From NCBI GenBank assembly GCA_039794005.1, contig JBAMMA010000006.1:27679-91678 (forward strand): a stretch of 64,000 nt of DNA, given 5' to 3'. Under the pieces are notes generated by a model. It saw only the letters and a program-made list of their open reading frames with translations. It did not search any database and had not been told where the DNA came from. A program made the position numbers and the translations under genes. Positions 5,503 to 48,737 of the stretch are shown in pieces. Origin of the DNA: Thermoplasmata archaeon. GTDB taxonomy: Archaea; Thermoplasmatota; Thermoplasmata; Thermoplasmatales; ARK-15. Position 1 is the stretch's first letter, and every line of letters begins with the position of its first letter.

Positions 5503-7782
5503 ATGATTAAAAAAATATTGGCTATTTTTATAATTATTGTTTTGATCTTAACCATACCCATGAATTTTTCAAAGTCTTCCAATCCTTATTGTAATAAAGA
5601 AACGGTCACTTTTTACATTCAAAATTTAACAAATTCAGTAAATGTAAACAATGTTACCACCACATATACATTCAATACTTTAAAAGGTGTAAGGGGTACA
5701 ATTGATCATTCTGTTCATTATATAATTGAGGACTGGTATTTATATCCACTACTGGCTGGAAATTTCTATATTTTTAATGGAACCTTTTGGATATATATTA
5801 GATTTAATGGAACGGATAACAATCCAAATTTATATTTGACTTTATACGAAAGGTCTCCCTCCGGCCAGGAAACACAAATAGCAAGAGGGTCTTCTCATCC
5901 AATACTTGCAACCTCAATAGAATCTTATTCAGTAAGTTTTAACACCACAGGGGTTGAGATTCCCTCTGGATATTCTTTGCATATTCATTTTGAGCTAGCC
6001 GGTGGTACTTCAACAATTTATTGGGTATACTATGGTAATTCTACGTATGCATCTGGAATGAATATAATTACAAATACCTCAATGTATATAAGCTCCGTTG
6101 AAACTTTAAATTATTTAAATCAGCCAGTCAAAGGATTTAGTCCAAATTCAACAAACAAACAAATAACGTTTTTAGCATACATAAACGATCCTCTGGGGGG
6201 ATATGACATAAGAAATGTTTCATTAAACATAAACGGAATTTCTTATATAATGATTAAAATTTCTGGAACAGAGGATTCATATACAAATATATATGAATTG
6301 CAATTAAACTATACCGGCTGGCAAACGGGAAATTATACTTATACCGTCTATGCACTTGACTATTCGGGTTTTTATTATTACCAAAATTATTACAAATATT
6401 TATGCTATCTAAGGTCATACGAATCATATTTTTGGATCGGATTCCCATTAAAGATAGATATCACATTATACACATCATCAGGAATTCCAGTTTCAAATGC
6501 TTACGTTGGATTGCGGGTAAATAATACTGTATACGGAAATTACACTATAAATGGGAAAACCTTAATATATGCATATGCTGGCACATATAATATTTTCATT
6601 GTTTATGACAATTATACTCTGCCTCCTGTAATGAAGACAATAATGAATGGAAAGGTATATGGAAATGTAATTAGTATTTCAAATTCAACAAACATAACGA
6701 TATTTTCAGACATTGGAAATTCATCCATAGAAATTCTGACATCAAACGGAATTCCAATTTACAATGCCCTGGTTTACATTCAATATCCCAATGAAAAGAC
6801 TTTTATTTATCAAACTCCAAAAAATGGAACGTTAACATTTTATAACGTTGGTGGAGGAATTTATAAGGTTGTTGTGTATTATCAGGGAGTTGAAGTGTAC
6901 AATTCTACGGTGAATTTTGTATTTAATACAAGCAGTCCTTCTATTTTATTGAAAATATTTACGAAGGTATACAACGTAGAAATAATAGCTGGAAGCTATG
7001 CAGGAATAAACATTTCAAATGTTATGATTTTCATTAAGAATGTTTATGGATCTGAAAACATTAATACTACGAATTCTTCTGGAATTTCAACATTTGAATT
7101 ACCTTATGGAAATTATCAATATGAAATGGAATATATGAATACAATAGTTTCAGAAGGCAGTTTCAATGTAAGTAATAATGAATCTTTATATATTAAAACA
7201 GAAATATTCAAAGTGAATATAAAAATAGTGGATTCCCTTGGGAATACATTGAATTATTCTTACGTGGAACTAATTGGAAATGGTAACACATTAACCACAA
7301 TTTCAAATGGAACTTTATCATATATAATACCAATTGGAAATTATACAATAAATGTCTATTGGGATAACAAAGACGTGAATTCAACAAACATTTTTGTTTA
7401 TGGAAATGAGAATATAACTATAAATAGCAGGGTATATTATTTGACGGTAAATGTCTATGATTCAAATAACATTCCCCTGAATTCATCATTTGTCATAGTT
7501 GAGAATAATCAAACGGTTGTTGCATTCTCATACAAGCCAATAAACACATTTAAGCTACCTTACGGTAATTATAGGATTTACGTTATTTATAAAGATACTT
7601 ACTATTGGACAGATATAAATTTAATAAAGGAATACAACGTCACATTGAACAGTAATTATTTAATAAATGCAAAACTTCCATTCCCAATACCTTTTTATGA
7701 AACAGTTCTGTTCATTTTTGTTGTTATATTCTTAATTGCAATTGCACTGACTTTCATAATCACAAGAAAGATATTCAAATGA
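5503..7782 (+). CDS. secreted, C-terminally membrane-anchored surface glycoprotein candidate (possible S-layer or cell-surface protein)
   Basis: N-terminal hydrophobic signal/anchor (MIKKILAIFIIIVLILTIPM). C-terminal TM plus basic tail (VLFIFVVIFLIAIALTFIITRKIFK). Dozens of N-x-S/T sequons, Y/N/T/S-rich beta-type composition, and five tandem repeat modules. Confidence 0.55.
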   Translation: MIKKILAIFIIIVLILTIPMNFSKSSNPYCNKETVTFYIQNLTNSVNVNNVTTTYTFNTLKGVRGTIDHSVHYIIEDWYLYPLLAGNFYIFNGTFWIYIRFNGTDNNPNLYLTLYERSPSGQETQIARGSSHPILATSIESYSVSFNTTGVEIPSGYSLHIHFELAGGTSTIYWVYYGNSTYASGMNIITNTSMYISSVETLNYLNQPVKGFSPNSTNKQITFLAYINDPLGGYDIRNVSLNINGISYIMIKISGTEDSYTNIYELQLNYTGWQTGNYTYTVYALDYSGFYYYQNYYKYLCYLRSYESYFWIGFPLKIDITLYTSSGIPVSNAYVGLRVNNTVYGNYTINGKTLIYAYAGTYNIFIVYDNYTLPPVMKTIMNGKVYGNVISISNSTNITIFSDIGNSSIEILTSNGIPIYNALVYIQYPNEKTFIYQTPKNGTLTFYNVGGGIYKVVVYYQGVEVYNSTVNFVFNTSSPSILLKIFTKVYNVEIIAGSYAGINISNVMIFIKNVYGSENINTTNSSGISTFELPYGNYQYEMEYMNTIVSEGSFNVSNNESLYIKTEIFKVNIKIVDSLGNTLNYSYVELIGNGNTLTTISNGTLSYIIPIGNYTINVYWDNKDVNSTNIFVYGNENITINSRVYYLTVNVYDSNNIPLNSSFVIVENNQTVVAFSYKPINTFKLPYGNYRIYVIYKDTYYWTDINLIKEYNVTLNSNYLINAKLPFPIPFYETVLFIFVVIFLIAIALTFIITRKIFK
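6448..7599 (+). repeat. five tandem protein-level repeat modules (about 55 aa each, 80-90 aa period) inside the surface protein; CarboxypepD_reg/PEGA-like pattern
   Basis: Recurrent pattern at aa 316-370, 408-462, 489-546, 569-622 and 645-699. Each has ...(I/V)x(I/V)...G(I/N)P(I/L)xN(A/S)xV....G(T/L)..(F/Y)xLPxGNYxxxVxY. Examples are YGNYQYEMEY, IGNYTINVYW and YGNYRIYVIY. Confidence 0.5.
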
Positions 7783-7783
7783 T

Positions 7784-8344
7784 TTACCAGGGTACATCCT
7801 TTTTTCCAATTTTATATCCTATTATATTTACAAGTCTATGCAATACGATGGTAATGATGATCAAAAATATTATAGAATAAATATTCCAGATGTATTTTAA
7901 AAATAGAGTGCTATTGAAAATATAAAAAAATATTAAAGAGCATATTATAAAAGGATATTGATCCAGGAACAACGCCTCTGATCCGCTTGGGAAATTCATC
8001 CTCCTCTTTATAAACGATCCGCAAGAATCACCTAGCATAGAAGAAAAAGATAGAAAAAACACTATTATAATGGCATACAAAAATGAATTTGAAAATTCTG
8101 GAATGTACGGACTATTTACAAAAGTTGATATCGTTTCTTCAACAATTCCAAAAAATGTTCCTGATAATGTTCCCCCAATGAATCCTTTCCATGTTTTACC
8201 TTTCCCCAATATTCTCCTACCATCTATGAAATTTTTATTAAAATCCATTGGCAATTTCCCTTTGAATATGACAGCAGATGGATTTGCTATGTATGATGGT
8301 ATGAGTAGCCAAAATGTGCCCACTATAACTATAAGAATATTCAT
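7784..8344 (-). CDS. carS: CDP-archaeol synthase (CDP-2,3-bis-O-geranylgeranyl-sn-glycerol synthase)
   Basis: 186-aa polytopic membrane protein. Its N-terminal region LLIPSYIANPSAVIFKGKLPMDFNKNFIDGRRILGKGKTWKGFIGG matches my memory of the CarS/DUF46 signature (P.Y.AN..A..FGG..P.DFGK.F.DGRR.LG.GKTWRG). Confidence 0.8.
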   Translation of the reverse strand: MNILIVIVGTFWLLIPSYIANPSAVIFKGKLPMDFNKNFIDGRRILGKGKTWKGFIGGTLSGTFFGIVEETISTFVNSPYIPEFSNSFLYAIIIVFFLSFSSMLGDSCGSFIKRRMNFPSGSEALFLDQYPFIICSLIFFYIFNSTLFLKYIWNIYSIIFLIIITIVLHRLVNIIGYKIGKKDVPW

Positions 8345-9024
8345 TATATAATCAAATCCGATTCCAAAATTTTATTTAATATTTCAGCAGTACCATCCGA
8401 ATATAATTTTTCCGAATGGAACTTTGATCTGGACCTCAATTTTGGAACAGAATTGCCAATGGTTGCACCGTTTTCGGTAATCTCAAACATATCATAATCA
8501 TTTTCGCCATCTCCAAAAACCATTAATTCCGATGGTTGAACTTTAAAGAAATCCAGTGCATATTTCAAAGCATTCCCTTTATTCACATTTTTGACCAGTA
8601 CCATTATCCTGTCAATATTGCTAACGATGTCAATTTTATCCATATATGGTTCTAAAATCTTTGAACATTTCATGGATTCTTCTATCGGTATTGATATTAA
8701 TAGTTCACCTTTAATAAATGGAATGTGATTTTCTTTTAGCAGTTCCATTAATTCCTTTGCCAAATTTTCCTGCCATTTTTCGAATAATTTTATCCTTAAA
8801 TTTTTTGATGATATATATATGAAATATCCATTTTCATAGATTATGAAATCAACATTGGATTTCATATGCTCTATATGCATCCATCTTCTTCCAGTAACAA
8901 TCCCTATTATAGCGTTTTTCTGCTTTAACTCTTTTAATAGAGGAATTATTCTGTAGTCAAAGGTCAATGAAGAAGTTGTTAAAACTCTATCGTAGTCAAA
9001 AGCAAACATTTTTAATTTTGACAT
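8344..9024 (-). CDS. HAD-superfamily subfamily IIB (Cof-type) phosphatase
   Basis: Motif I FAFDYDRVLT (DxD), GIVTGR, and C-terminal motif FGDGENDYDMF. About 226 aa from ATG 9024. Its stop codon shares one nucleotide (8344) with the carS start (TAATG). Confidence 0.7.
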   Translation of the reverse strand: MSKLKMFAFDYDRVLTTSSLTFDYRIIPLLKELKQKNAIIGIVTGRRWMHIEHMKSNVDFIIYENGYFIYISSKNLRIKLFEKWQENLAKELMELLKENHIPFIKGELLISIPIEESMKCSKILEPYMDKIDIVSNIDRIMVLVKNVNKGNALKYALDFFKVQPSELMVFGDGENDYDMFEITENGATIGNSVPKLRSRSKFHSEKLYSDGTAEILNKILESDLII

Positions 9025-9124
9025 CAATTTTGATATTGTTTAATAGATAAAAAATTTTTTTCAGAAATTTGATTGAATTAAAAATAGAAAAAAATATATT
9101 TTTAATTAAAATAACCACATTATA

Positions 9125-9198
9125 GGGCCCGTGGTCTAGCTGGTTATGACGGTGCCCTTACACGGCGCAGGTCACCGGTTCGAATCCGGTCGGGCCCA
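9125..9198 (+). tRNA. tRNA-Val (anticodon UAC)
   Basis: Manual cloverleaf. Acceptor GGGCCCG/CGGGCCC. Anticodon stem GTGCC/GGCGC with loop CTTACAC. T arm ACCGG-TTCGAAT-CCGGT. Discriminator A. No encoded CCA and no intron. GC-rich stems in an AT-rich context. Confidence 0.93.
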
Positions 9199-10047
9199 TT
9201 AACACATAGGTAATAATAACGAAAAAATTTGATTTTTAAAAAATAAATATGAAAATTAACACTTTTTAATTAGTCAAAGATTCATTATAACCTTTATTAT
9301 AATTTCAATATAATTTTAACAATCTTGATATAGAAATTAAATGTTTAAACATTCTTTACATCTTTTTTAACCCGATACAGAGAATCTTGTGATATAAACT
9401 TATACCTGAAACATTCTTAAGTCTAAATGAAAAAATCAATGAATTCCTTACTCTTAAATATTTCATGATCCTTTATATATTTTAAATAATCCTCCTCATT
9501 TATATTGATTCTCATACTTATATCAAGGTTCTTGGATTACTGCCGATGTATCTGATTCGCTCAAATATTACATGTTTCCTAGCATATATATTGATGTAAT
9601 CGATCTAGTTATCCTTATTCCTAAATTGTTAAGATATCGTAAAATATATTATTTTGTGAATTTTTGAATCCAAAAGAAATGCGTGAAATTTGATTTAGAT
9701 ATTTTCAACCATAAAAGAGAATATTTTAGGAAAATAATTGTTTAAAAAGAAGGTACGAAAAATTGGAGGAGGTTAAAAAACTATATTTAATGTTTATTTG
9801 AGAATTTTAGGATTTTTTCGAATTGAAAAATATGTATCCATAAAAATTAATTTCCACGCTTAAAGGGGATTATTAATATGAAGGGATATATATACTTGCC
9901 TGGTAAGGAATAGATAATATTTGATATTAAAAAGGGCAAATGTGAAAAAATTCTAACAAAATTTTAAATAATGGAATATCATAAATTTTCATTGAAAAAA
10001 TTGATAAATATATTTTAATTTAAAAAAGCATATGAGGTGTATTTAAG

Positions 10048-21331: not shown

Positions 21332-21343
21332 TGGTTGATTGAA

Positions 21344-23869
21344 ATGGGAGGGGAATTAGACGTTAAAAATAATGCATATTATTTTAGCTTTCCCAACGTT
21401 CATGTAGACAAGGAAACGCACAAAGATTTGTCTTTGATATATTCCAACTATGTACATTCAACGCACAGATCATTTGGAATAGGCATTTTTGTAAATAATG
21501 GGAACGTAAATTTCTTTACATCTAACGATGACATATATTCATTGAAAACGATTTACAAGAATTTAGAGAGGGATCATATAATAGGTAAATTTGATATCAG
21601 GAATTTTAATCATAATTTTACATCTGCATTTACGAAAAAGGATTTTATAAATCCGTATAATGAAAGGATAGATTTTTTTGAACACATAATATCTTACATT
21701 TCATGGTTCCACGATATATCTTTTCTGCTTTACATACTTCTCGAACCTTGGTATTATGAAAAAAATAGGAAGGTTTTCAAAATAAGGATTAAACTTTCAC
21801 TTGATGATAAAAATTATTCGGATAGATTGATATCAATAATAGAATCCTACTGGGGAAATGCTAACAATAGATTGAAAATGGTTCCTGAAAATAGGATTAA
21901 CATATTTTACAAAAAGTATGCATATTTGGATAACAAATTCTTTCATACAATAATTCCTTATCCAGGGGAGCACATATTAAAAATTAAAAAGAAAAATATC
22001 GAAAATGATATAAAGATAAGAATACCGATTGGAAATGATTCTGTATCATCAGAGGAGATTAATTTATTGTTAAATGAATATGATGGTTCTACAACATTTA
22101 TAATAGGACAAACAGGTTCTGGTAAAAGTACTCTTTTATTAAACATTTTTTCAAGAATTAAAGAATTGGATTATCCAATAATAGTTCTAGATCCGACGGG
22201 AGATTTGGCCAGAAAGATGATTAATATAACTGACGATAAAAGAACAATATACATTTCTCCCATTGAAGTTCCTGTTTCAATGAATTTGATGAAGAGTGCA
22301 CATGAAAATATAAAATATAGTGCTCCCAAAATTGCTGAAGATTTAATAATGATGTTAAAAGATGTTACAGAGAGCGAATCAAAAATACCCGGAGGCCTTG
22401 TTGGGACAAAAATTGAAGATATAATAAGAAATTCCGTTGCCGGTTTGGCAGAACTGCCAAATACAACAATTCTTGACATTTATGATATTATTTCAAATGA
22501 GGAAAAGAGGAAAATGTTTCATTCGATTTCAAAAAACGAGGAGTTTAAAAATTTCCTTGAAAGAATTGAAGATATGGATGATGAAGACATTGGAAGCACC
22601 AGGAGGGTATTATCATTCATAAAAACGAATCCAATTTTAAAAGAAATGTTATGTTCACGATCACCACTCTTTGACTTCGAGGAAATATTTGAAAAAAATA
22701 TGATTGTGATCATAGACGGAGATAGATCTAACATAGGTGAAAATGTATCTAAATTCATATTATCTTCAATGTTGACAATGATATGGATAAATGTGCAGAG
22801 GAAAAATAAAAAGGCATTTTTAATATTGGATGAAATACAGGACTATTCAAATTCATCGCTGAATGAAATGGTATCAATGGGAAGGAAAAATAATGTTGAA
22901 ATACTGATGGCAACAACACATCTGTCATCTTTAAAACCCGGCATCATAGATTCTCTTATGGCAAATGCAAAAAATTTCGTTATATTTAAGAGCTCACCTT
23001 CAGACGCGAGGGATTTTTCAGAAAAGATAGGAATTGACAAAAACGTTTTAATTAATCTGGATATTGGAAAGGCATACTTCCATTCATCTTATTATTCGGG
23101 AATAATAAACACACATAATATCAAATTTATTGAAAAGGATTACAGAAATATAATTTCTTATTCAAAAATGTATGTTCATAACATTCCAAAGAAAAATAAA
23201 TCCATTATTTATGACACAATATTTTTGAAATCCATGAACGTTGAGCCTTCGATTGAAGAAATAAAGAACATCAGGATATATTCAAAAACCGGTGATCAGG
23301 ATAGCATAGAAGAAGAAATAAAAAATCTATTGGATAATGGTGAAATTGAGATCAAGAACAGCGTTATATCATTGAAAAACAACATAGTTTTGGATAAAAG
23401 GATAGAAAAATTGATTTCCCTTGGTTTGCTAATTAGGGAAAATGGAGAACACAAATACCTTTGTTTCCCCTATTCGGGTTTTGGATCATTGAACTTTTTT
23501 GAAAAGGTAAATGTGGAATTTTTGGAAAATGAAATAATATTAAACGATAAAATATATTCCCTGGAAGAATTCTTGCAGATAAAGAATGATGATAAATTGC
23601 TGAAATTAATTGAAAACATGTTTGGATCTTTAGATGGGAAAAATATTATAATTACATCATCAAGAAAAATTTCAGAATGTTTTAGAAAATTATATCCGGA
23701 TGAATCAAAATATTATATGAATACATTGGAAAGAGCTATTAAAAATGAATTGTTGAGGAATAAAAAAGCTGAATTGATAAAAACAAAAATAGGAAAAATA
23801 TCCATGAGGGTTTTAAAACTAAATATTTCCAAAATGCCAGATTGCGATATATACATTGATAATTCATAG
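21344..23869 (+). CDS. large P-loop NTPase of the FtsK/HerA superfamily (TraD/VirD4-coupling-protein-like or HerA-like) with unknown N-terminal domain and wHTH-like C-terminal region
   Basis: Walker A FIIGQTGSGKSTLL (nt 22106-22132) followed by IIVLDPTGD. About 230 aa of mostly helical insertion. Walker B AFLILDEIQDY (22817-22834), then MGRKNNVEILMATTHLSSL. C-terminal LDKRIEKLISLGLLIRENGEHKY. The track start is TTG 21335; the first ATG is 21344. Confidence 0.6.
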   Translation: MGGELDVKNNAYYFSFPNVHVDKETHKDLSLIYSNYVHSTHRSFGIGIFVNNGNVNFFTSNDDIYSLKTIYKNLERDHIIGKFDIRNFNHNFTSAFTKKDFINPYNERIDFFEHIISYISWFHDISFLLYILLEPWYYEKNRKVFKIRIKLSLDDKNYSDRLISIIESYWGNANNRLKMVPENRINIFYKKYAYLDNKFFHTIIPYPGEHILKIKKKNIENDIKIRIPIGNDSVSSEEINLLLNEYDGSTTFIIGQTGSGKSTLLLNIFSRIKELDYPIIVLDPTGDLARKMINITDDKRTIYISPIEVPVSMNLMKSAHENIKYSAPKIAEDLIMMLKDVTESESKIPGGLVGTKIEDIIRNSVAGLAELPNTTILDIYDIISNEEKRKMFHSISKNEEFKNFLERIEDMDDEDIGSTRRVLSFIKTNPILKEMLCSRSPLFDFEEIFEKNMIVIIDGDRSNIGENVSKFILSSMLTMIWINVQRKNKKAFLILDEIQDYSNSSLNEMVSMGRKNNVEILMATTHLSSLKPGIIDSLMANAKNFVIFKSSPSDARDFSEKIGIDKNVLINLDIGKAYFHSSYYSGIINTHNIKFIEKDYRNIISYSKMYVHNIPKKNKSIIYDTIFLKSMNVEPSIEEIKNIRIYSKTGDQDSIEEEIKNLLDNGEIEIKNSVISLKNNIVLDKRIEKLISLGLLIRENGEHKYLCFPYSGFGSLNFFEKVNVEFLENEIILNDKIYSLEEFLQIKNDDKLLKLIENMFGSLDGKNIIITSSRKISECFRKLYPDESKYYMNTLERAIKNELLRNKKAELIKTKIGKISMRVLKLNISKMPDCDIYIDNS

Positions 23870-25441
23870 AAAATCGAAAAGTGTACTCTGTCCTTTAATA
23901 TTTTTTCTATTCAATTTATTATCACTTTTGCTCATGTTTTTCAACTTTGATTTCATCTTTTTTTCTTTCATCAATGAGGCATAATACATGTTTTCGTCCA
24001 TTGTATCCTCGTATATTAAAAACACAACCCTCCCCGGCCTTGCCCTTCCGGTTCTACCTCTCCTCTGTATATTTCTTATTTCTGAACCTACGGCCTCATG
24101 GAATATTACGAGGTCTGTTTCGGGGATATCTAAGCCTTCTTCTCCGATCTGAGTGCTTATTAATACGTTTATTTCACCGTTTTTAAACATTTCAAGTATT
24201 TTTATCTGTTCTTTTTGAGACATGCCCTTGTCTGAACCCTTTGAGCTCTGACCCAAAAACCTTGATGGCTTAACTCCGGGTAATGTTGATAAATAATTAT
24301 AAAGATCCATGTTTATGTTTCTATAATTTGTAAAGACAATTATCCTGGATTTTGGATTTCTCTTTAACTGATCCAATATAATATCTCCTATCACCTTTAT
24401 CTTAGGTGATATTGATGACTTTTCAACCAAATACTTTGCTCCAATTATCAGATCTACAAATTCTTTCATTTTGGATAATTTCATATCACCCTTGTTTTTC
24501 TTCTCAATTCCATTTTTATATATTTCTTCGAGGTATTCTAGAGATGTTTTTGGGTCCTGGGTTTCAAGGTATTCGATTGCAACCAACATCTTCATTATTA
24601 TTCCTATATAAGATAACAATGGATAAAATGATTTATTACCATTCTGTATTTCATTCCATATGCTTTTTTGCAATTCAACAACTTGACCCTTTGTCAATTT
24701 CTTTGGTATATTTATGTCTGGATACTTTTCTTCAATCTCATTTATTACCTTCGATATTATTTCCCTCAACTTTTCCCTCATGGGTTCAAATTCTGAGGGA
24801 AATTCCAATTTTATAACTTCTATCTTTACACCGTGTATGTATGGGGTAACATCTTCATCGGATTCTGTTCTTATTTCAACATTTTCAATATGAAGATTTT
24901 GCATGATCTCCTTCAGTCTTTCCTCATCTGATCCTGGAGATGCCGTCAAGCCTATTATCAACGCATTTTTACATTTTTCTGTAACATATGTATAAGCATA
25001 CTTTCCAACAGACCTATGAGCTTCATCGACTATGAGCAGTTTTATTTCATCCGGATTGAAAATATTTGATGAAATGTCATTTTCAATAACTTGTGGTGTG
25101 CTAACAATGATGTCGTTATTTTCATAAAGTTCTTTTCTCTGTTCTTTTTTAATGGTTCCCGTTATACTAACGATCTTTTGATTTTTCAGATATTTTTTAA
25201 GCCTTTCTGCATGCTGGTTTACCAAAGGCCTAGTAGGGGCAAGCAGTAATATTTTAGGGCCTCTTTTGTTTAAAAGTTCAGCCATGATGAGAATCGCAAT
25301 TTCTGTTTTTCCTGCACCCGTTGGCAAAACTATTAATGAATTTTTTCCCTTATTTAATACACTTTTTGCAATTGATTCCTGGTATTTTCTTCTCTCCAAT
25401 GTATTTTCTTTTATTTCTGGATGATTTACGTATTCAGGCAT
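23864..25441 (-). CDS. hef: Hef/FANCM-family SF2 helicase, helicase domains only (no XPF-type nuclease domain)
   Basis: Collinear with the remembered Pyrococcus Hef helicase part: RRKYQESIAKSVL..NSLIVLPTGAGKTEIA, LLLAPTRPLVNQHAE, LLIVDEAHRSVGKYAY, GLTASPG, IIVFTNYR, LISTQIGEEGLDIPE, IQRRGRTGR. The ORF stops at aa 525, where Hef has its linker. Confidence 0.8.
   Translation of the reverse strand: MPEYVNHPEIKENTLERRKYQESIAKSVLNKGKNSLIVLPTGAGKTEIAILIMAELLNKRGPKILLLAPTRPLVNQHAERLKKYLKNQKIVSITGTIKKEQRKELYENNDIIVSTPQVIENDISSNIFNPDEIKLLIVDEAHRSVGKYAYTYVTEKCKNALIIGLTASPGSDEERLKEIMQNLHIENVEIRTESDEDVTPYIHGVKIEVIKLEFPSEFEPMREKLREIISKVINEIEEKYPDINIPKKLTKGQVVELQKSIWNEIQNGNKSFYPLLSYIGIIMKMLVAIEYLETQDPKTSLEYLEEIYKNGIEKKNKGDMKLSKMKEFVDLIIGAKYLVEKSSISPKIKVIGDIILDQLKRNPKSRIIVFTNYRNINMDLYNYLSTLPGVKPSRFLGQSSKGSDKGMSQKEQIKILEMFKNGEINVLISTQIGEEGLDIPETDLVIFHEAVGSEIRNIQRRGRTGRARPGRVVFLIYEDTMDENMYYASLMKEKKMKSKLKNMSKSDNKLNRKNIKGQSTLFDFL
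23867..23890 (-). other. C-terminal PIP-box-like motif QSTLFDFL (putative PCNA-interacting peptide) of the Hef-like helicase
   Basis: The last eight residues fit Q-x-x-L-x-x-F-(F/L). Compare the remembered archaeal RFC-L C-terminal QATLFDFL. Confidence 0.5.
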
Positions 25442-27031: not shown

Positions 27032-30000
27032 CTAAATTTCATAATACCTGTATGAAAACGCCTTTTTAACGCTATTTGATATTTCATCGAATATTTCTTT
27101 TAATGTTTCAATATAATCCCTCTTTCCACTTTCAATTTCATCAATTTCTTCGTACAACTTCGCTGTTCTGTTTTCACTTACAAGATGCGGATAATTGTTT
27201 ATTAGATATCCATAACCTTCTTCTCCCAGGGTTGTTGAATATAGATATTTAGACTTATCTTTTATAACATATTTCCTCGTCTCCAGGTTTGTGATTATCA
27301 TTGAATATGTGCTTGGTCTTCCCAATTTCTTGTTTTTCATATCCCTTACCAGTTCACCTTCCGTATAAGGATTTACTTCCGATATGTATATGTTCCACTT
27401 GGGCTGTAAAATACATTCCTTCATGCACATCCTTTTTACACTTTCACCCATTGATTCTTTTATGACTGAGGGTGTGTAAACAAACTTCTTTAAAATGTTC
27501 ATATCTATATCATCAAGTTTAACAGAAACAATTCTCTTTTCCATGTTCTTTATTTCTATGATTTTGCCGTTCAATTCACCCTCCAATATTATATTCTCCT
27601 CCTCATATTTCACATTGTCAATCTGTGATGTTATAAATCTTTTGAATATCATATTGTATAATAATAAATGGTCCTTTGTCAATCTGCCTTCAAATGATAT
27701 TTCACCAGATTCTATTGAATCTATGAGCATTTCGAGGTCTAGGGGTTTTGTTGGCCTGATGCATTCATGCGTACCGGATTCTCCCCAACTCCTTGGTTTG
27801 AAAAATTCAATATCATCTTTTCCAAATATCTGTTTAAAATACGATTTTGCAATCGATATGCCGTGCCGTGATACGTGGGTGGAATCGGTTCTATGGTATG
27901 TTATTAAACCTAGCTCAAAGAGATCCTGGGCCAGGTTCATGGTCTTTCCAACATCGAATTTTAATATATATGAGGCATCGGTTAAAAGCGTATCGGTGGT
28001 ATAAGGAGGCAATATTGCCATATCATTTATTTTATATTCTATGGACTTTAGCCTTGCTTTTATTGGCTCCGTAACCTGAGAATCAATTATAAACGATAAT
28101 TTTTCTATACCTTCTATCTTCAGTATTGTTGAAAGTCTTCTCATTTTATAATATTCTTTTGTCCTTTCTACAATCCATCCCAAGACCGGTGTTTGAACCC
28201 TTCCTGCGCTCAAATTCTTGTTTATTTTACAGTTTACCTTATCGCTTAGACCCACCTTCTTGCAATAGAATCTCCAAAATACAGTCTGCATTTTCCTTGA
28301 TAAAACAAACCCAACCCACCTGTCTTCAATCCTCCTTACTAGCTGGGCTTTGATCATATTCAAATCCATTTCCCTTGGGCTATTTATCGCCTTTAGTATG
28401 GCCTCTTTTGTCACCTCATGGAATTCCACCCTCTTTATGTTTCTGTTCATAGGCCTGATATTTAAAAATATGTCCCATGCAATCTTTTCGCCTTCAATAT
28501 CCGGATCTGTACCTATAAAAACCTCATCCACTTCAAATGCAAGCTTTCTTATATCTTCAATTGTATTAATTTTATCCATTACTATTTCTTCACCGCATTT
28601 TGGACACCTGTTTCTAATGGAATCTGTTACCTGATGGCCATTCTTACACCTCTTGATGGAATTGTAATATGGAATAAAATTGATTTCACCATCTTTTTCA
28701 ACCTTTTCAATTCCATAGAATCCCAATGGTCTGGTTGTAAGATCAAAAAGATGGCCCTGTGATGCAACGATCATCATTGTCATTTTACCAAGGAATGTTT
28801 CGTAAATCCTTATTCCGTTCATGTCAAAAAATCCAGGTTTTCCAAAAAATGATGATATTGTCCTTGCTTTAGTAGGAGATTCGACAACCATTAAAACATG
28901 TTTCATTTCCGATAATGATGATATTACATTTTTTTCAATGCCATCATTCATTATATCCCTATCTTTTTCAACCTCCCTTATGTTTAATTCCAAATTTTCA
29001 ATTCTCTCTTTTTCAAAATCTTTGAATTCTATATCGGGAATTGAAATTTTCAATTTATTCTCAAACTTTGAAAAGAGGGCATCGTTTTCATATAACACTA
29101 TAGATATCCCCTTTGTAAGTTGTCCTCTGAACAATCTTGAAGTTCTACCAGATGCATGAATATATGTTGTATGTGACGGTACCATGACCCAGCCATTCAT
29201 AATAACAAAGTTTGTCTGCTTATTCATATAATCTGTAAATTCGGGATCGTTTAGATATCTTTCAACGATCTCATATGCCTTTTTGATATCTTCATCAACA
29301 TTTTGTTCCTCAATCTTTTTCTGTAAAACAATCAATGCCCCTTGGCTCATGTTTTTTAACATCTTTTTCATCTTTTTTGATAATGAAGAAATCTCGGGAT
29401 CATTGCTTTTTCTGGCAATTAAATTTAATATTCTTACCATCTGCTGGAATGGTAGTATTTCACCTATCTTTATTGCAAATTTCGGAATACCATAAAAAAT
29501 GGAATACTTAATTCTCCATGGTATATCTATACCTCTTACCAAAAGACCATTATGACTCGACACTCCGACGAGAACATTCACTTTACCATTGATAAAATCT
29601 TCAATACCCTTAGAATTTTTGGAAGTAATGGCCAAAGATTTTATTCCATTTTTATTTAAATATTTTGATATTTCTTCAGCCTTTTCAATTCCATATTCCG
29701 GAGATACAAATATTATTATTCCATCCTTAAACATTTTAACCATATTTAATATTTTGTTCATGCCATCTTCCAGTTTAGCCTTATAATCTATGATATTTCT
29801 CAAAAATATTGAAACGCTACCGGGCCTGAAGCCTAAAACGGATGTGATCAATTTATTACCACCTGTCATTGTTGCGGATGAAAATATTATAATTTTATCC
29901 TTCAACTTTTTATTTTTAATTTCCTGCAGCTTTCTATACCTCTCAACATCATCTTGTTCCTTCAATATTTCCTGTATCCTTGAAATATCGTTTTCATCAA

Positions 30001-30700
30001 ATCCTATTACCTTCAATATGGAATATACACCCTTTTTTGTTTTTATCGCTGAATCAATATCATCAACAAAGATTAAATTGTATTCCAAAGAAGTTATTTT
30101 TTCAGCATTGTTCATTATATATCTTCCTGTAAAAACGGCAATATCAAAGTTTCCGGAATAAAAATTGTTCTCATTTTCTATTCTTTCAGCTTTTTTCATT
30201 CCTGAATGAACGGAGACTATTTTTGGATTTAAGCCCAATTTTTCAGCATATTCTTTTAAAATTTTTAATGATTGATCTAGCAATGTTCTTGTTTGAAATA
30301 TCAGTATAGATTTTTTACCTTTTGTAAAATAGTATAAAGAGGATATCAATCCAAAGGTAGTTTTACCAAAACCTGTAGGTGCTACAATTCCAAAACTTTG
30401 ACCTCTAGATAATCTGGATATCCAGGACCTTTGAATTCCTGAAGGAGAAAAACCTATTGAACCTTTAAACAGCTTTTCAAAATCTTTCAACATATTGATT
30501 GTATTTTCCATCCATTGCAAATTTTTCAGCTTACCTAAAAATTTCAAATTTTCAACCAATTCAATTGGACTACTGAATTCTTTATGACCTGATAGACACT
30601 CCTCACAAACAGAGCCATAAAATAGCCTTCGTGCATTAATATTTTTACCACAATTCGGACATGTATTAATAAACGTTGATTCTGGTATATAAGAATTCAT
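27032..30700 (-). CDS. rgy: reverse gyrase (SF2 helicase-like domain fused to type IA topoisomerase)
   Basis: 1222 aa. N-terminal Zn finger CPNCGK...CEECL. Walker A APTGFGKTTFG. DDID box. Toprim VMVVESPTKA...GTDPDIEGEKIAWD. Second Zn finger CKNGH...CPKCG. Active-site region LITYHRTDSTHVS. Confidence 0.95.
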   Translation of the reverse strand: MNSYIPESTFINTCPNCGKNINARRLFYGSVCEECLSGHKEFSSPIELVENLKFLGKLKNLQWMENTINMLKDFEKLFKGSIGFSPSGIQRSWISRLSRGQSFGIVAPTGFGKTTFGLISSLYYFTKGKKSILIFQTRTLLDQSLKILKEYAEKLGLNPKIVSVHSGMKKAERIENENNFYSGNFDIAVFTGRYIMNNAEKITSLEYNLIFVDDIDSAIKTKKGVYSILKVIGFDENDISRIQEILKEQDDVERYRKLQEIKNKKLKDKIIIFSSATMTGGNKLITSVLGFRPGSVSIFLRNIIDYKAKLEDGMNKILNMVKMFKDGIIIFVSPEYGIEKAEEISKYLNKNGIKSLAITSKNSKGIEDFINGKVNVLVGVSSHNGLLVRGIDIPWRIKYSIFYGIPKFAIKIGEILPFQQMVRILNLIARKSNDPEISSLSKKMKKMLKNMSQGALIVLQKKIEEQNVDEDIKKAYEIVERYLNDPEFTDYMNKQTNFVIMNGWVMVPSHTTYIHASGRTSRLFRGQLTKGISIVLYENDALFSKFENKLKISIPDIEFKDFEKERIENLELNIREVEKDRDIMNDGIEKNVISSLSEMKHVLMVVESPTKARTISSFFGKPGFFDMNGIRIYETFLGKMTMMIVASQGHLFDLTTRPLGFYGIEKVEKDGEINFIPYYNSIKRCKNGHQVTDSIRNRCPKCGEEIVMDKINTIEDIRKLAFEVDEVFIGTDPDIEGEKIAWDIFLNIRPMNRNIKRVEFHEVTKEAILKAINSPREMDLNMIKAQLVRRIEDRWVGFVLSRKMQTVFWRFYCKKVGLSDKVNCKINKNLSAGRVQTPVLGWIVERTKEYYKMRRLSTILKIEGIEKLSFIIDSQVTEPIKARLKSIEYKINDMAILPPYTTDTLLTDASYILKFDVGKTMNLAQDLFELGLITYHRTDSTHVSRHGISIAKSYFKQIFGKDDIEFFKPRSWGESGTHECIRPTKPLDLEMLIDSIESGEISFEGRLTKDHLLLYNMIFKRFITSQIDNVKYEEENIILEGELNGKIIEIKNMEKRIVSVKLDDIDMNILKKFVYTPSVIKESMGESVKRMCMKECILQPKWNIYISEVNPYTEGELVRDMKNKKLGRPSTYSMIITNLETRKYVIKDKSKYLYSTTLGEEGYGYLINNYPHLVSENRTAKLYEEIDEIESGKRDYIETLKEIFDEISNSVKKAFSYRYYEI

Positions 30701-45392: not shown

Positions 45393-47354
45393 CTAATACC
45401 TAATTTTTACCTCTTCGTAAGCATCCCTGAGCAATTTTAAATAATAAGGTATTGAATAGTCCACATTTTGATAACTAGATGTGGCCTTTAACGGCCTTTC
45501 AGAATATATTATGTATTTTACGTGCTCGGATGGATATAATAATAAATCCTTTCTATAATATTCATCTAATATTTGCTTTGTGGGCGTATTTACCAAATAT
45601 TCCCAGGGATATTTGGTAATTCTTTTTTCCAAAAGCAATTTCTCTGGGTTTACATCCCTATTTTCCAGCATTTCCTTGTACTTGAAAAATAATTTATTTA
45701 GATCAATCTTTTCAACATCTTCTTTATTTTTAACATTTTTCAATAATTCCAATGCCTCCGTTTGAAATTCTTTAATAAATTCTGGTGTATCATGCCTCCT
45801 AAGCATAATACCACGAATTTTATATTCCCCATTTATATTATAGGCAATATATCTTCCAGGGGAACCTAAATATTGTTCGCCCTTTAATGGGATTATTTTC
45901 ATCCAATAATATTTTCCAGATAGTTCAATGGGCAGTTCCGTTTCTTTTTCTATTTCTTCAACAATGCTTTCTTCCACAAAACCTGATAACCATAAGGAAT
46001 CTACTATTATTGATATTACATCATACCCATGCTTTTCAACAATGTCTTTTGTCTTTATTATGATATCCCTGGCATATGCATTTATGCTTTCATGTACTTC
46101 AATGCTTCCAAATTTAGCATTCCTGTACCCTGTATATCCAAATGAAGTCACAAGCATCCATTTAAATGCCTTGTCTATTCCCTCTAAATCTTTGATTGTT
46201 TTCTTCAATTTTTTTATCTTTATCCTAAGATCGAGGAAATCTTCAAGCGCATATGACAAAAAACCCCTCTTTTCCATGCTAACTTTATACCCTATCTCGG
46301 GCACAATTTCACATCTTTCACATTCTGAATTGACAGTCTCCAATGAAAGGTTTTTCTTTACTATTATTGATGGATACATTGAGGTAAAATCAAGCTCAGA
46401 TACCTCCCAGTATATTCCAGGAGATACCTGATATACTAGGCCTCCTTTGTCAGATTTTATTAACATTTCGAGGCTCTTTTCCTTTTCTGGCCTCGATTTA
46501 TGGTATGGAACGGCAATACCGTTTCTAAGCGCCTTTGAAACTTCCATGCTTGAAATTAATGTTCCCGGTGTAGACCTAGCTGCATATGATGGATCTAAGG
46601 AGGATATTGATGAGGATGCCAGAACACCAAAAATTCCACCTTCAGAATATATAAAGCTAGTTTTTGGATCTATAAGAGATCTTCCCCTTGGAACATAGGT
46701 CAATTCCTTGTGATATTTATAACCATAGGAAAAGTATTCCTTTTGTCTTATTAAATTCCATCCTGGAATTCTTCCTATGTAAAATTCAACATTTCTATTT
46801 TTTGAATCATAGATCCAATTTGGCAAAATTGTATCTATATCATCCATTATCAAAATATCTGGGTCTTCTTCCATCACAATATCCATAATTTTCAAATAAT
46901 CTCTCAAGGGGATGTATTTACCGTTGTATTCATATCCCGTGCTATCTCTTTTAAATTTTATGATTTTTAATCCAGAAAAATTTGGTATTCCCCCTTTATA
47001 ATCATAATAATTCAATTTATTTTCGGACAAATATCTCAATGATAACCTTATATCCACATTGTATAAATCTACCAGATAATAGTTAAAATATTTTTCAACC
47101 AAAGATGATATTTTGAAGAACGATTGTGGAACTGTTTTTATATAATATCCATCGATTTCACCGAACACCGTCTTAATTCTTTTTTTCCCCTTTTCTACGA
47201 TTCCAGGGAATTCTATTTCAAATATCCTTTCAGAAATATTTCTTTCATCGGATATTAAAAATTCCGGATAATATTTCTCTCTCTTTATTATTATCTTATC
47301 ATTTTCTTTAAAGAATAATATTGCATCTCTTAATATCTCTATTGAGACGAGCAT
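45393..47354 (-). CDS. short family-B DNA polymerase, PolB2-like (degenerate exonuclease motifs, divergent motifs B and C)
   Basis: KGG LVYQVSPG (YxGG region). Motif A ELDFTSMYPSII (D322). Motif B variant KWMLVTSFGYTGYRNAKFG. Motif C position reads IIVDS (D452, nt 45999-46001) instead of YGDTDS. YKIRGIMLRRHDTPEF matches the KxKG..RRD block. No DIE Exo I motif, and the Exo II region reads DPDILIMDDIDTILPNW. Confidence 0.7.
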   Translation of the reverse strand: MLVSIEILRDAILFFKENDKIIIKREKYYPEFLISDERNISERIFEIEFPGIVEKGKKRIKTVFGEIDGYYIKTVPQSFFKISSLVEKYFNYYLVDLYNVDIRLSLRYLSENKLNYYDYKGGIPNFSGLKIIKFKRDSTGYEYNGKYIPLRDYLKIMDIVMEEDPDILIMDDIDTILPNWIYDSKNRNVEFYIGRIPGWNLIRQKEYFSYGYKYHKELTYVPRGRSLIDPKTSFIYSEGGIFGVLASSSISSLDPSYAARSTPGTLISSMEVSKALRNGIAVPYHKSRPEKEKSLEMLIKSDKGGLVYQVSPGIYWEVSELDFTSMYPSIIVKKNLSLETVNSECERCEIVPEIGYKVSMEKRGFLSYALEDFLDLRIKIKKLKKTIKDLEGIDKAFKWMLVTSFGYTGYRNAKFGSIEVHESINAYARDIIIKTKDIVEKHGYDVISIIVDSLWLSGFVEESIVEEIEKETELPIELSGKYYWMKIIPLKGEQYLGSPGRYIAYNINGEYKIRGIMLRRHDTPEFIKEFQTEALELLKNVKNKEDVEKIDLNKLFFKYKEMLENRDVNPEKLLLEKRITKYPWEYLVNTPTKQILDEYYRKDLLLYPSEHVKYIIYSERPLKATSSYQNVDYSIPYYLKLLRDAYEEVKIRY

Positions 47355-47584
47355 TTTATTTCAATCTTTTCAATTTCTTTCTCCATTTCTATCAATATTG
47401 ATAAAAAAACTGCCTCAAGAGGGTCTTCAAGAGAATATGTGGATTCTGCAGAATACCTTTTTGCCTTTTCTATGATCCTTTCAATGTATTTTTTATCCTC
47501 TGAATGCATGGCCTTCATAAACGACTGCCATCTATCAATTATATTGTTTATTTCCTGCCTCATCGTTGAAACATTCCTACCCAT
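47339..47584 (-). CDS. hypothetical small helical protein (81 aa), operonic with the PolB2-like gene
   Basis: Overlaps the polymerase start by 16 nt. Helix-favouring sequence (QEINNIIDRWQSFMKAMHSEDKKYIERIIEKAKRY). Confidence 0.45.
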   Translation of the reverse strand: MGRNVSTMRQEINNIIDRWQSFMKAMHSEDKKYIERIIEKAKRYSAESTYSLEDPLEAVFLSILIEMEKEIEKIEIKCSSQ

Positions 47585-47589
47585 TCACA

Positions 47590-48147
47590 TCACCCATTTT
47601 GATTATTGAAGTCAAATAAAGATAGCTGACCTGGTATATAATAGAAGTGATAATTCTTTTCACCATATTTTATGTTGTATCCATAACTATGCTTTTCAGT
47701 GATTATGTATGGAAATTTGGATGTTATGGAAAATGGGTATGATGAAAAGAACAATGTTATGGAATTATTTTCACTTGTATATTCCACGAGACCATTAACA
47801 ATTCCAGATATTAATGCATACTTTTCATCGTTCCTGAGGTCAGAATATGATATGGGGTCAAAATAATACATTAAAAGGTCATATTTATTTTTCAATTCCT
47901 TTATAATTTCAATGATCTGATAAAATGTGAAACCCCTTCTAATTTTTATTTTTATATCATTTCTGAATTTTTTAATGATGTTATATGAATGCCTTAAATT
48001 CAGAGGTGAATAATTCCCCAATATTATGTAATCTGACATGCCAAAAATTTGTGATTCAACCAGGAGCCTATCCGAGGGAAAAATCTCAGGATTTTTTATT
48101 ATGTACATCTTTCCATAATCAAATATGTCCAAAAGATTTAAAATCAT
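47590..48147 (-). CDS. hypothetical protein; possible P-loop-less RecA/RadB/KaiC-like fold with C-terminal PIP-like motif
   Basis: 185 aa. The order of hydrophobic strands and helices parallels RadB (LLDIFDYGKMYIIKN.. where RadB has LD.LLGGG....V.G, but no GKT). DLLMYYFDPIS sits at the Walker-B-like position. Ends GQLSLFDFNNQNG. Confidence 0.3.
   Translation of the reverse strand: MILNLLDIFDYGKMYIIKNPEIFPSDRLLVESQIFGMSDYIILGNYSPLNLRHSYNIIKKFRNDIKIKIRRGFTFYQIIEIIKELKNKYDLLMYYFDPISYSDLRNDEKYALISGIVNGLVEYTSENNSITLFFSSYPFSITSKFPYIITEKHSYGYNIKYGEKNYHFYYIPGQLSLFDFNNQNG
47608..47628 (-). other. PIP-box-like motif QLSLFDF five residues from the C-terminus of the 185-aa protein
   Basis: Fits Q-x-x-L-x-x-F, but the eighth position is N rather than aromatic. 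Confidence 0.35.
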
Positions 48148-48188
48148 TTTAGAATTTAAAAAACAATAATAGATTTAAAATTTTTTAA

Positions 48189-48737
48189 TCACGATAGCAT
48201 AATATCCATCTGATCATATCCCACCTGCTGTAAAAGTGTTGGGTTTTCAAAGAAACCTGTACCTGTAATGTTTATTAAATATTCATAATAATATATCAAA
48301 AATATTGATTTGTGAAAATGCGGTAAATAAAATTCTTTGTATTCAAAGACTTTATACGTTCCACTGCTGTATAAAGGCATTAACGCATGCTGGAATGGAA
48401 AATATGCCTGCGCTGGAGAATCCATCTGTTGGAAAAGTATTGAAAGTGAAGAATAATTCTTTAAAGATTGGTATATTTCCTGAATATCGATTTGATATAA
48501 ATTTGACTTAGAAACATTATAAATGTGAGTATAATTTTTAATTTCATTTGTGTTATATATCTTTTCTATTGTTGATAAATTTACAAATGCTACATTTATT
48601 GGAACAACTGTAGTCTGTGGCGCATTACCCCAGAAAGTTGCATTCTTTACTGAATAATAAATTTCAAAATAAAATGCTACCACCAAAACTACCACCAAAA
48701 TAATTATTATTGCCAAAATCTTCTTTAAAGACATCAT
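48189..48737 (-). CDS. hypothetical N-terminally anchored extracytoplasmic protein (182 aa)
   Basis: Signal anchor KKILAIIIILVVVLVVAFYF followed by an N-x-S/T-rich, Tyr-rich domain. No motif recognised. Confidence 0.45.
   Translation of the reverse strand: MMSLKKILAIIIILVVVLVVAFYFEIYYSVKNATFWGNAPQTTVVPINVAFVNLSTIEKIYNTNEIKNYTHIYNVSKSNLYQIDIQEIYQSLKNYSSLSILFQQMDSPAQAYFPFQHALMPLYSSGTYKVFEYKEFYLPHFHKSIFLIYYYEYLINITGTGFFENPTLLQQVGYDQMDIMLS

Follow-up and report, generated by a model that had tools for sequence, protein, structure and literature searches.

The window studied here, a stretch of 64,000 nucleotides from a Thermoplasmata archaeon (assembly GCA_039794005.1, contig JBAMMA010000006.1, positions 27,679 to 91,678), carries on its minus strand a compact pack of three genes that ends with a family-B DNA polymerase. 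The first gene is an open reading frame (ORF) of 185 amino acids with an ATG start (47590..48147, read from 48147 to 47590), whose product has MILNLLDIFDYGKMYIIKN as its N-terminus and IPGQLSLFDFNNQNG as its C-terminus. The second encodes a helical small subunit of 81 amino acids (47339..47584, read from 47584 to 47339), and the third the polymerase itself, a protein of 653 amino acids belonging to the PolB2 group (45393..47354, read from 47354 to 45393). The first two genes are separated by 5 nt, and the stop of the second gene and the start of the third overlap by 16 nt (47339-47354). This overlap measures 4-20 nt in the related loci L001-L005 (around position 4001-4020), and its presence there and in the window suggests translational coupling of both subunits. 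A conserved operon associating PolB2, an arCOG07300 protein and an inactivated RadA has been described (Makarova et al. 2014, PMC4104785), and the names iRadA and PPB2 were given to the two partners of the polymerase by Timinskas et al. 2025 (PMC11791011). On sequence grounds, the first gene of the window operon is real. From its ORF, its synteny, hhalign comparisons and an AlphaFold2 (AF2) model searched with Foldseek, we consider it probable that the 185-amino-acid protein is the dead-ATPase iRadA of this known PolB2 translesion operon and that its C-terminal motif ties the polymerase to PCNA.

The two downstream genes can be recognised as PPB2 and PolB2. The 81-amino-acid protein (arCOG07300 / DUF8156) starts with MGRNVSTMR (residues 1-9; 47558..47584, minus strand), as read from its sequence. 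This start matches the MGRT arm with Arg3 and Arg9 described for PPB2 (PMC11791011), and the length of the protein lies within the ~80-90 amino acids of that family. Precomputed matches to PF26485 (DUF8156) exist for the PPB2 orthologues of L001-L003 and L007, with a weak one in L005, and a local Pfam scan of the 81-amino-acid window protein itself gave no match. ORFs of the MGR...S.R type were found upstream of PolB2 in ~50 loci. The polymerase matches Pfam DNA_pol_B (E 8.9e-22) and NCBIfam NF004416 (E 1.4e-147; 493 bits, just under the cut-off of 516), and its homologues are 33-68% identical. In a 10-sequence alignment of PolB2 proteins, the canonical DxD of motif C is replaced by IVD (residues 450-452; 45999..46007, minus strand), I450, V451 and D452 all being invariant. 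In the same alignment, the D(K/R) motif (D302-K303; 46446..46451, minus strand) comes after the segment AVPYHKSRPEKEKSLEMLIKS, with D302, G304 and G305 invariant; it is a candidate iRadA-docking element, a role proposed in PMC11791011. By eye, the exonuclease domain appears decayed, FKRDS replacing FDIET.

This gene order is widely conserved. An ORF of ~160-185 amino acids, an MGR protein of ~80 amino acids and PolB2 follow one another in L001-L005 and L007. From a scan of GTDB species genomes, ~45 of 80 further PolB2 loci have the same ORF pair directly upstream of the polymerase gene, and the ~45 genomes showing the complete order belong to Thermoplasmata, Methanoregula, Methanothrix and Archaeoglobus. 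Overall, the two-ORF pair precedes PolB2 homologues in Thermoplasmata, in Methanomassiliicoccales and on other archaeal contigs. No PPB2 ORF of the MGR type was found directly upstream of the PolB2 homologue in L006/L031 (Methanothrix chromosome) nor in ~30 other PolB2-like loci, which may represent other operon orders, solo copies or paralogues. The upstream ORF is much longer than the usual ~175 amino acids in Methanocalculus chunghsingensis (L074, 1489-2616; 375 amino acids, ending with GQVSLGAF) and in L038 (1801-2760; 319 amino acids); these long ORFs may be N-terminal fusions or may have mis-assigned starts. The metagenomic operon of L007 is bordered (7201-10043 and 1941-2966) by genes for an SNF2/PLD-type helicase-nuclease and an SNase/LTD protein, and by a phage-integrase-like gene, which hints at a copy located on a mobile or defence island.

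Then, we examined the relatives of the 185-amino-acid protein. Public annotation misses this family entirely: the protein matches no Pfam or NCBIfam model, its close relatives are annotated as "hypothetical protein", and an exact look-up in the protein collection retrieved none of the three operon proteins of the window. Homologues of iRadA were found at 95%, 74% and 35% identity, the nearest ones being from uncultured Thermoplasmata. A profile of the window clade searched against 1.84 billion cluster representatives recovered just two relatives (74% and 35%), and relatives were therefore gathered via the PolB2 homologues; 18 proteins came from a word-indexed search that used a profile of 20 sequences. 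The resulting family alignment holds 46 sequences taken from the iRadA gene position, with the window protein aligned to them, and the counts given below refer to it. Its nearly invariant columns are G12, P20, G44, N45, R71, F73, T74, D97, Q174 and L177. A hidden Markov model (HMM) built without the window clade gives the window protein 18.9 bits (p ~4e-8, for a single target chosen a priori). Moreover, hhalign links the window clade to the clade of the Methanomicrobia/Archaeoglobus type with a probability of 96% (E 2.6e-9) over residues 9-180, the C-terminal motif included. These two tests establish homology without circularity.

The fold was approached by structure prediction. AF2 run with three close homologues alone gave an unusable model (predicted local distance difference test, pLDDT, 32.6), and the 20-sequence alignment was required. 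With this alignment, the predicted template modelling score (pTM) reached 0.68 and the pLDDT was ~70-88 over residues 1-140. In its first half, the model shows a strand (14-17), a loop (18-24) and a helix (25-34), then a strand (39-43) and a helix (51-59); in its second half, a strand (67-71) and a helix (75-84), a strand (91-95) and a helix (106-127), and a last strand (130-134) that leads into a low-confidence beta region and the tail. Strand-helix units alternate from residue 14 onwards, and a length of 185 amino acids gives no space to the N-terminal helical (helix-hairpin-helix, HhH) domain. Searched against the PDB with Foldseek, the model gave 135 matches at E <= 1e-3. All of the top 50 belong to the RecA superfamily (RecA, RadA, Rad51, Dmc1, Rad51 paralogues, KaiC, T7 gp4 and Twinkle), with E-values from 4e-6 to 9e-5 and query TM-scores of 0.47-0.58. 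The initial annotation of the window, made from sequence by eye, had proposed a RecA fold lacking its P-loop and had named a structure search as the test beforehand; the search returned this fold and not another one. Every string that it quoted is present (MILNLLDIFDYGKMYIIKN, PSDR, DLLMYYFDPIS, QLSLFDFN in IPGQLSLFDFNNQNG, and QSTLFDFL in a helicase). It had compared the protein with folds of the RadB/KaiC type; the closest described relative is neither of these specifically, but the RadA-derived iRadA of the PolB2 operon.

In the model, three strand-helix units are followed by a hydrophobic strand that ends with a near-invariant Asp, an arrangement that would correspond to the order of the Rad51 core. 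We mapped the P-loop and Walker B positions from this order of secondary-structure elements, and not from a residue-by-residue superposition. The Walker A position is thus occupied by KNPEIFPSDR (residues 18-27; 48067..48096, minus strand), which forms the loop and the start of the first helix and includes PSDR as residues 24-27. The family consensus in this segment is I-A-P-E, with P20 in 42 of the 46 sequences, and the window protein, like all 46 members of the family, lacks both GK[ST] and GxxxxGK[ST]. The Walker B position falls in DLLMYYFDPIS (residues 90-100; 47848..47880, minus strand), which contains the fourth strand (91-95 in the model) and D97, retained in 45/46 members. The placement of both Walker positions in the initial annotation, at PSDR and at DLLMYYFDPIS, is consistent with this order. 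Two further motifs stand out in the alignment. GNYS (residues 44-47; 48007..48018, minus strand) is near-invariant after strand 2 (G44 and N45, 42/46 each). By eye, it sits where Rad51 has TEGTF, and the catalytic Glu position would therefore also be lost. We also considered GNYS, instead of residues 18-27, as the remnant of the P-loop; by comparison with Rad51, a strand-helix unit would then be missing ahead of Walker B, and this placement was rejected. The signature RR.FT..Q, read as RRGFTFYQ in the window protein (residues 70-77; 47917..47940, minus strand), covers strand 3 and helix 3, with R70 in 37 members, R71, F73 and T74 in 42 each and Q77 in 41.

We then analysed the C-terminus, where the initial annotation had pointed out a motif resembling the PCNA-interacting protein (PIP) box. 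The peptide YIPGQLSLFDFNNQNG bears Q174, L177 and F180, which occupy positions 1, 4 and 7 of the PIP box. The motif itself, QLSLFDFN (residues 174-181; 47605..47628, minus strand), is followed by a tail of four residues and lies in a low-confidence region of the model (residues 154-185), a location compatible with an accessible, flexible peptide. Conservation of this motif in the orthologues was borne out: Q and L are each found in 45/46 relatives, T or S at position 3 in 41/46 and F at position 7 in 25/46, and Q174 and L177 are among the 11 best-conserved columns of the family. Most of the relatives end with the motif itself. The 74% orthologue has QLSIFDF, the 35% clade has QISLDYFMEV and QTSLEYFMEV, and proteins from Methanothrix, Archaeoglobus and Methanomassiliicoccales have Q.TLE[AV]F. 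The window has 51 non-overlapping ORFs that reach 100 amino acids, and only two of them, iRadA and a Hef-like helicase, have a PIP-like motif at the C-terminus; together with the conservation of Q174 and L177, this count places the motif beyond chance. The window motif also resembles the C-termini of this helicase (QSTLFDFL) and of Methanothrix FEN1 (GQSTLDRWF). In agreement with what had been noted for the polymerase, the pattern Q..[LIMV]..[FWY][FWYLIMN] has no match anywhere in PolB2, nor in the 81-amino-acid PPB2.

Several results weigh against this interpretation, some concerning the RadA ancestry and others the contact with PCNA. HMMER/profile searches of PDB sequences with the family gave nothing relevant and no RadA match, and Pfam and NCBIfam scans of the window protein and the 46 relatives gave nothing of RecA type. 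With hhalign, the probability was <1% against human RAD51 and also <1% against a 5-sequence profile of RAD51 and haloarchaeal RadA/RadB. The RAD51 query was verified against 5jzc (744.6 bits, full length). The sole segment paired by hhalign was RRGFT..Q with ARAFN..HQ of Rad51/RadA, at a non-significant level, and the Walker B strand was added to this pairing in the RAD51 run only. With RAD51 as tblastn query, no RadA or RadB was detected in the window or in any of the retrieved loci. Furthermore, residues 142-185 of the model, which include the C-terminal motif, have a pLDDT <50, and the confidence of the model as a whole is only moderate. In addition, 14 of the 46 relatives weakly match NCBIfam models of ABC-transporter ATPases in their helix and Walker B region (22.8 bits and E 2.6e-5 at best), and the profile search of the PDB listed a MacB chain (E 0.88). 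These matches and the non-significant hhalign comparisons would fit a protein that is not derived from RadA, either a remnant of another ASCE (additional strand, conserved E) P-loop ATPase, such as an ABC-type nucleotide-binding domain, or a generic Rossmann-like domain, the RecA matches then reflecting a general alpha/beta similarity. However, the ABC matches span ~50 residues only, correspond to a generic helix-strand-Asp unit and stay far below the curated cut-offs; we judged the resemblance to be a generic one. The top 50 Foldseek matches contain no ABC, SMC or Rossmann dehydrogenase fold, and an assignment of the operon proteins to RadA by HHpred has been published (PMC4104785; PMC11791011 methods), the kinship being so eroded in one arCOG that HHpred alone detects it (PMC4104785). 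A different ancestry is therefore, in our view, very unlikely. In the upstream protein of L021, the ABC-like segment corresponds to residues 64-113, with the pattern VRRAFT..QLL....hhhhEHDPTLF. A last variant keeps the iRadA identity and supposes that the protein still binds or hydrolyses nucleotide in a non-canonical manner through D97, R70/R71 and N45; instead of a passive scaffold, it would be a regulated switch comparable to RecA-ATP in Pol V. These residues are indeed strongly conserved, and the Pol V mutasome does use ATP (PMC11791011 discussion). However, they are equally explicable as interface or structural residues, the P-loop glycine-lysine-serine/threonine is present in none of the 46 members, and the literature treats the family as inactivated (PMC4104785, PMC11791011), which leaves such a switch extremely unlikely.

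In the window protein, position 8 of the PIP box, expected to be aromatic or hydrophobic, is Asn181; it is Asp in the 74% orthologue and Met in the 35% clade, and most other relatives end at position 7 and so have no position 8. In Methanoregula, the motif reads QRTLEVS/QRTLEVT, which keeps Q and L with no aromatic residue. Retention of Q and L without the aromatic anchors needed by a PIP box fits PCNA binding less well than binding to another conserved partner; such a terminus would be a PIP that has become unusually relaxed, or would serve some other protein. An Arg/Ser-rich linker precedes QRTLEVS/T in proteins of the Methanoregula type (L013, L016, L020, L021, L024, L032, L041, L065 and others). 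No PCNA gene was found within the window. In the published HMM scan, no more than a fraction of the iRadA proteins were assigned a PCNA motif (PMC11791011), and according to a 2026 review the complex has yet to be verified by experiment, the mutasome model being in silico (PMC13324097). The protein could then be iRadA with a Q-x-T/S-L terminus that docks on PolB2, on the PPB2 trimer or on another replisome protein, its likeness to a PIP box being partial and coincidental. Against this, the aromatic-bearing motifs match true archaeal PIP termini from the same lineages, namely those of Hef and of Methanothrix FEN1, the AlphaFold-Multimer and AlphaFold 3 (AF3) models of PMC11791011 seat iRadA motifs in the PCNA pocket, and neither PolB2 nor PPB2 of the window has a clamp motif of its own. 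We thus regard another partner as improbable, and an iRadA tethered to PCNA as the better explanation of the window protein. The contrast between the 45 of 46 members that carry Q-x-T/S-L here and the fraction called by the published scan can be extended to a broader proposal, in which this terminus is near-universal and obligatory in this euryarchaeal branch; PolB2 complexes would then generally have iRadA as their only clamp adaptor, through a relaxed, 7-residue, terminal PIP variant, or the peptide would bind another conserved partner. We advance this proposal tentatively and hold it to be rather doubtful.

Following the published models, iRadA of the window would keep the RadA/RecA fold after loss of the N-terminal domain and of the ATP-binding site, and would serve as a non-catalytic subunit of a PolB2 translesion synthesis (TLS) complex. 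It would be co-transcribed, and probably co-translated, with PPB2 (81 amino acids) and PolB2 (653 amino acids). A PolB2-iRadA-(PPB2)3 heteropentamer has been modelled, PPB2 being predicted to form a trimer with its MGRT arm bearing Arg3 and Arg9 (PMC11791011). According to this work, PolB2 would dock onto iRadA via a strand-helix element that mimics the contact between subunits of the RadA/Rad51 filament, and the N-terminal arm (MGR...R9) of one protein of the PPB2 trimer would lie next to the DNA, inserted between iRadA and PolB2. At its C-terminus, iRadA has a peptide (GQLSLFDFN in the window protein) that would enter the hydrophobic pocket of PCNA, as AlphaFold-Multimer and AF3 models place such motifs, and PCNA-bound iRadA would bring PolB2, devoid of a clamp motif, to stalled primer ends. 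In the published set, clamp-binding motifs are found more often on the C-terminus of iRadA than on PolB2, and rarely on both (PMC11791011). In its supplement, the Thermoplasmata rows show type 1a operons whose polymerases have IVD/IID, and QSHLEAFG is one of the motifs given there for iRadA. The idea, present in the initial annotation, of a PCNA adaptor for a polymerase without a PIP motif is plausible by analogy and is the same as the prediction made for iRadA in PMC11791011. This by-eye reading was essentially right, yet it rediscovers a published in silico concept, and the idea is not new.

The present analysis shows how the operon is built, that the protein belongs to the family (by synteny and by profile comparison), that its predicted fold is RecA-like and lacks Walker A, and that its C-terminal motif is conserved in sequence and in place; complex formation, PCNA binding and a role in TLS/mutagenesis are proposals drawn from the literature and from analogy. 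The novelty is confined to a highly divergent lineage without annotation, its FDF-type motif, and a Q..L terminus that is near-universal in the euryarchaeal branch, proteins without aromatic residues included, which gives a small probability that PCNA is not the partner, or not the only one. PolB2 is a damage-inducible translesion/mutagenesis polymerase of many archaea, whose route to stalled primer ends is known from structure predictions only; PolB2/Dpo2 has been described as a damage-inducible TLS extender in Sulfolobus (PMC7390963 and PMC8764526). The window supplies a clear-cut case in an uncultured lineage of Thermoplasmata, probably a thermophilic one, and it leaves the current picture unchanged. 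As the clamp motif is absent from PolB2 and PPB2 and a strong one of the FDF type is carried by the dead RadA, this operon would be a convenient construct for the idea of a recombinase-derived clamp adaptor.

The window protein shares several features with the described iRadA proteins (arCOG07763 / arCOG04294 / arCOG08101; e.g. F0NED7 of S. islandicus). It has the same gene position, in an order that corresponds to operon type 1a, a RecA/RadA-like core without the N-terminal helical domain, a lost ATPase site, and a clamp-binding-like motif at the C-terminus with a cognate PolB2 that lacks one. Unlike them, it is very divergent and covered by no family model or annotation. Its motif is of the FDF type (QLSLFDF with an NNQNG tail), whereas most relatives end with Q.TLE.F. 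Archaeal RadB is comparable as a short RadA paralogue, a stand-alone RecA core of ~200 amino acids without the N-terminal HhH domain, and it counts among the RecA-fold relatives (RadB locus L091 was used). However, RadB keeps its Walker A intact, as GPPAAGKT in the protein examined, is unlinked to PolB2/PPB2 and has no significant sequence similarity to the window protein. RadB is not known to have a C-terminal PIP motif either. The Pol V mutasome also associates a translesion polymerase with an accessory subunit of the RecA family bound via a mimic of the filament interface, and has the N-terminal arm of a small subunit near the active site (PMC11791011). It differs in that its RecA, taken from the recombination filament, has ATPase activity, its polymerase belongs to family Y, and the clamp motif is located on UmuC and not on RecA. 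In the eukaryotic Pol delta (Pol32/p66) and Pol zeta, a non-catalytic subunit with a C-terminal peptide of the QxxLxxFF type tethers a family-B polymerase to PCNA, following the same logic. The fold of Pol32 is unrelated to that of iRadA; Pol32 is largely disordered, with a winged-helix N-terminus and no RecA ancestry. The parallel with Pol zeta has been drawn in PMC11791011.

Upstream of iRadA, on the same strand, lies an ORF of 182 amino acids (48189-48737) without a family match, whose product is membrane-like with a hydrophobic N-terminal helix. This neighbour is kept only in the closest relative (L001, 2616-3164) and is missing from the more distant operons. Between this ORF and the iRadA start, an A/T-rich spacer of 41 nt (48148-48188) holds TTTTAAAT- and TTTTTTAAAT-like elements ~10-35 nt before the iRadA ATG. 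At such a distance, these elements suggest that the spacer may contain a TATA box giving a near-leaderless transcript.

Finally, we looked at other genes of the window. A reverse gyrase of 1222 amino acids is encoded on the minus strand (27032-30700), with zf_Rg, DEAD, Toprim and Topoisom_bac domains; its presence in a window of 33% G+C with Thermoplasmata relatives suggests a thermophilic or hyperthermophilic host. The Hef-like helicase (23864-25441, minus strand; 525 amino acids) has ResIII/DEAD and Helicase_C domains, no nuclease domain being detected in it, and ends with KGQSTLFDFL, a canonical archaeal PIP motif. The adjoining gene on the plus strand (21335-23869) encodes a protein of 844 amino acids with weak HerA/DUF87, TrwB-like and AAA_22 ATPase matches, which may be a DNA translocase.

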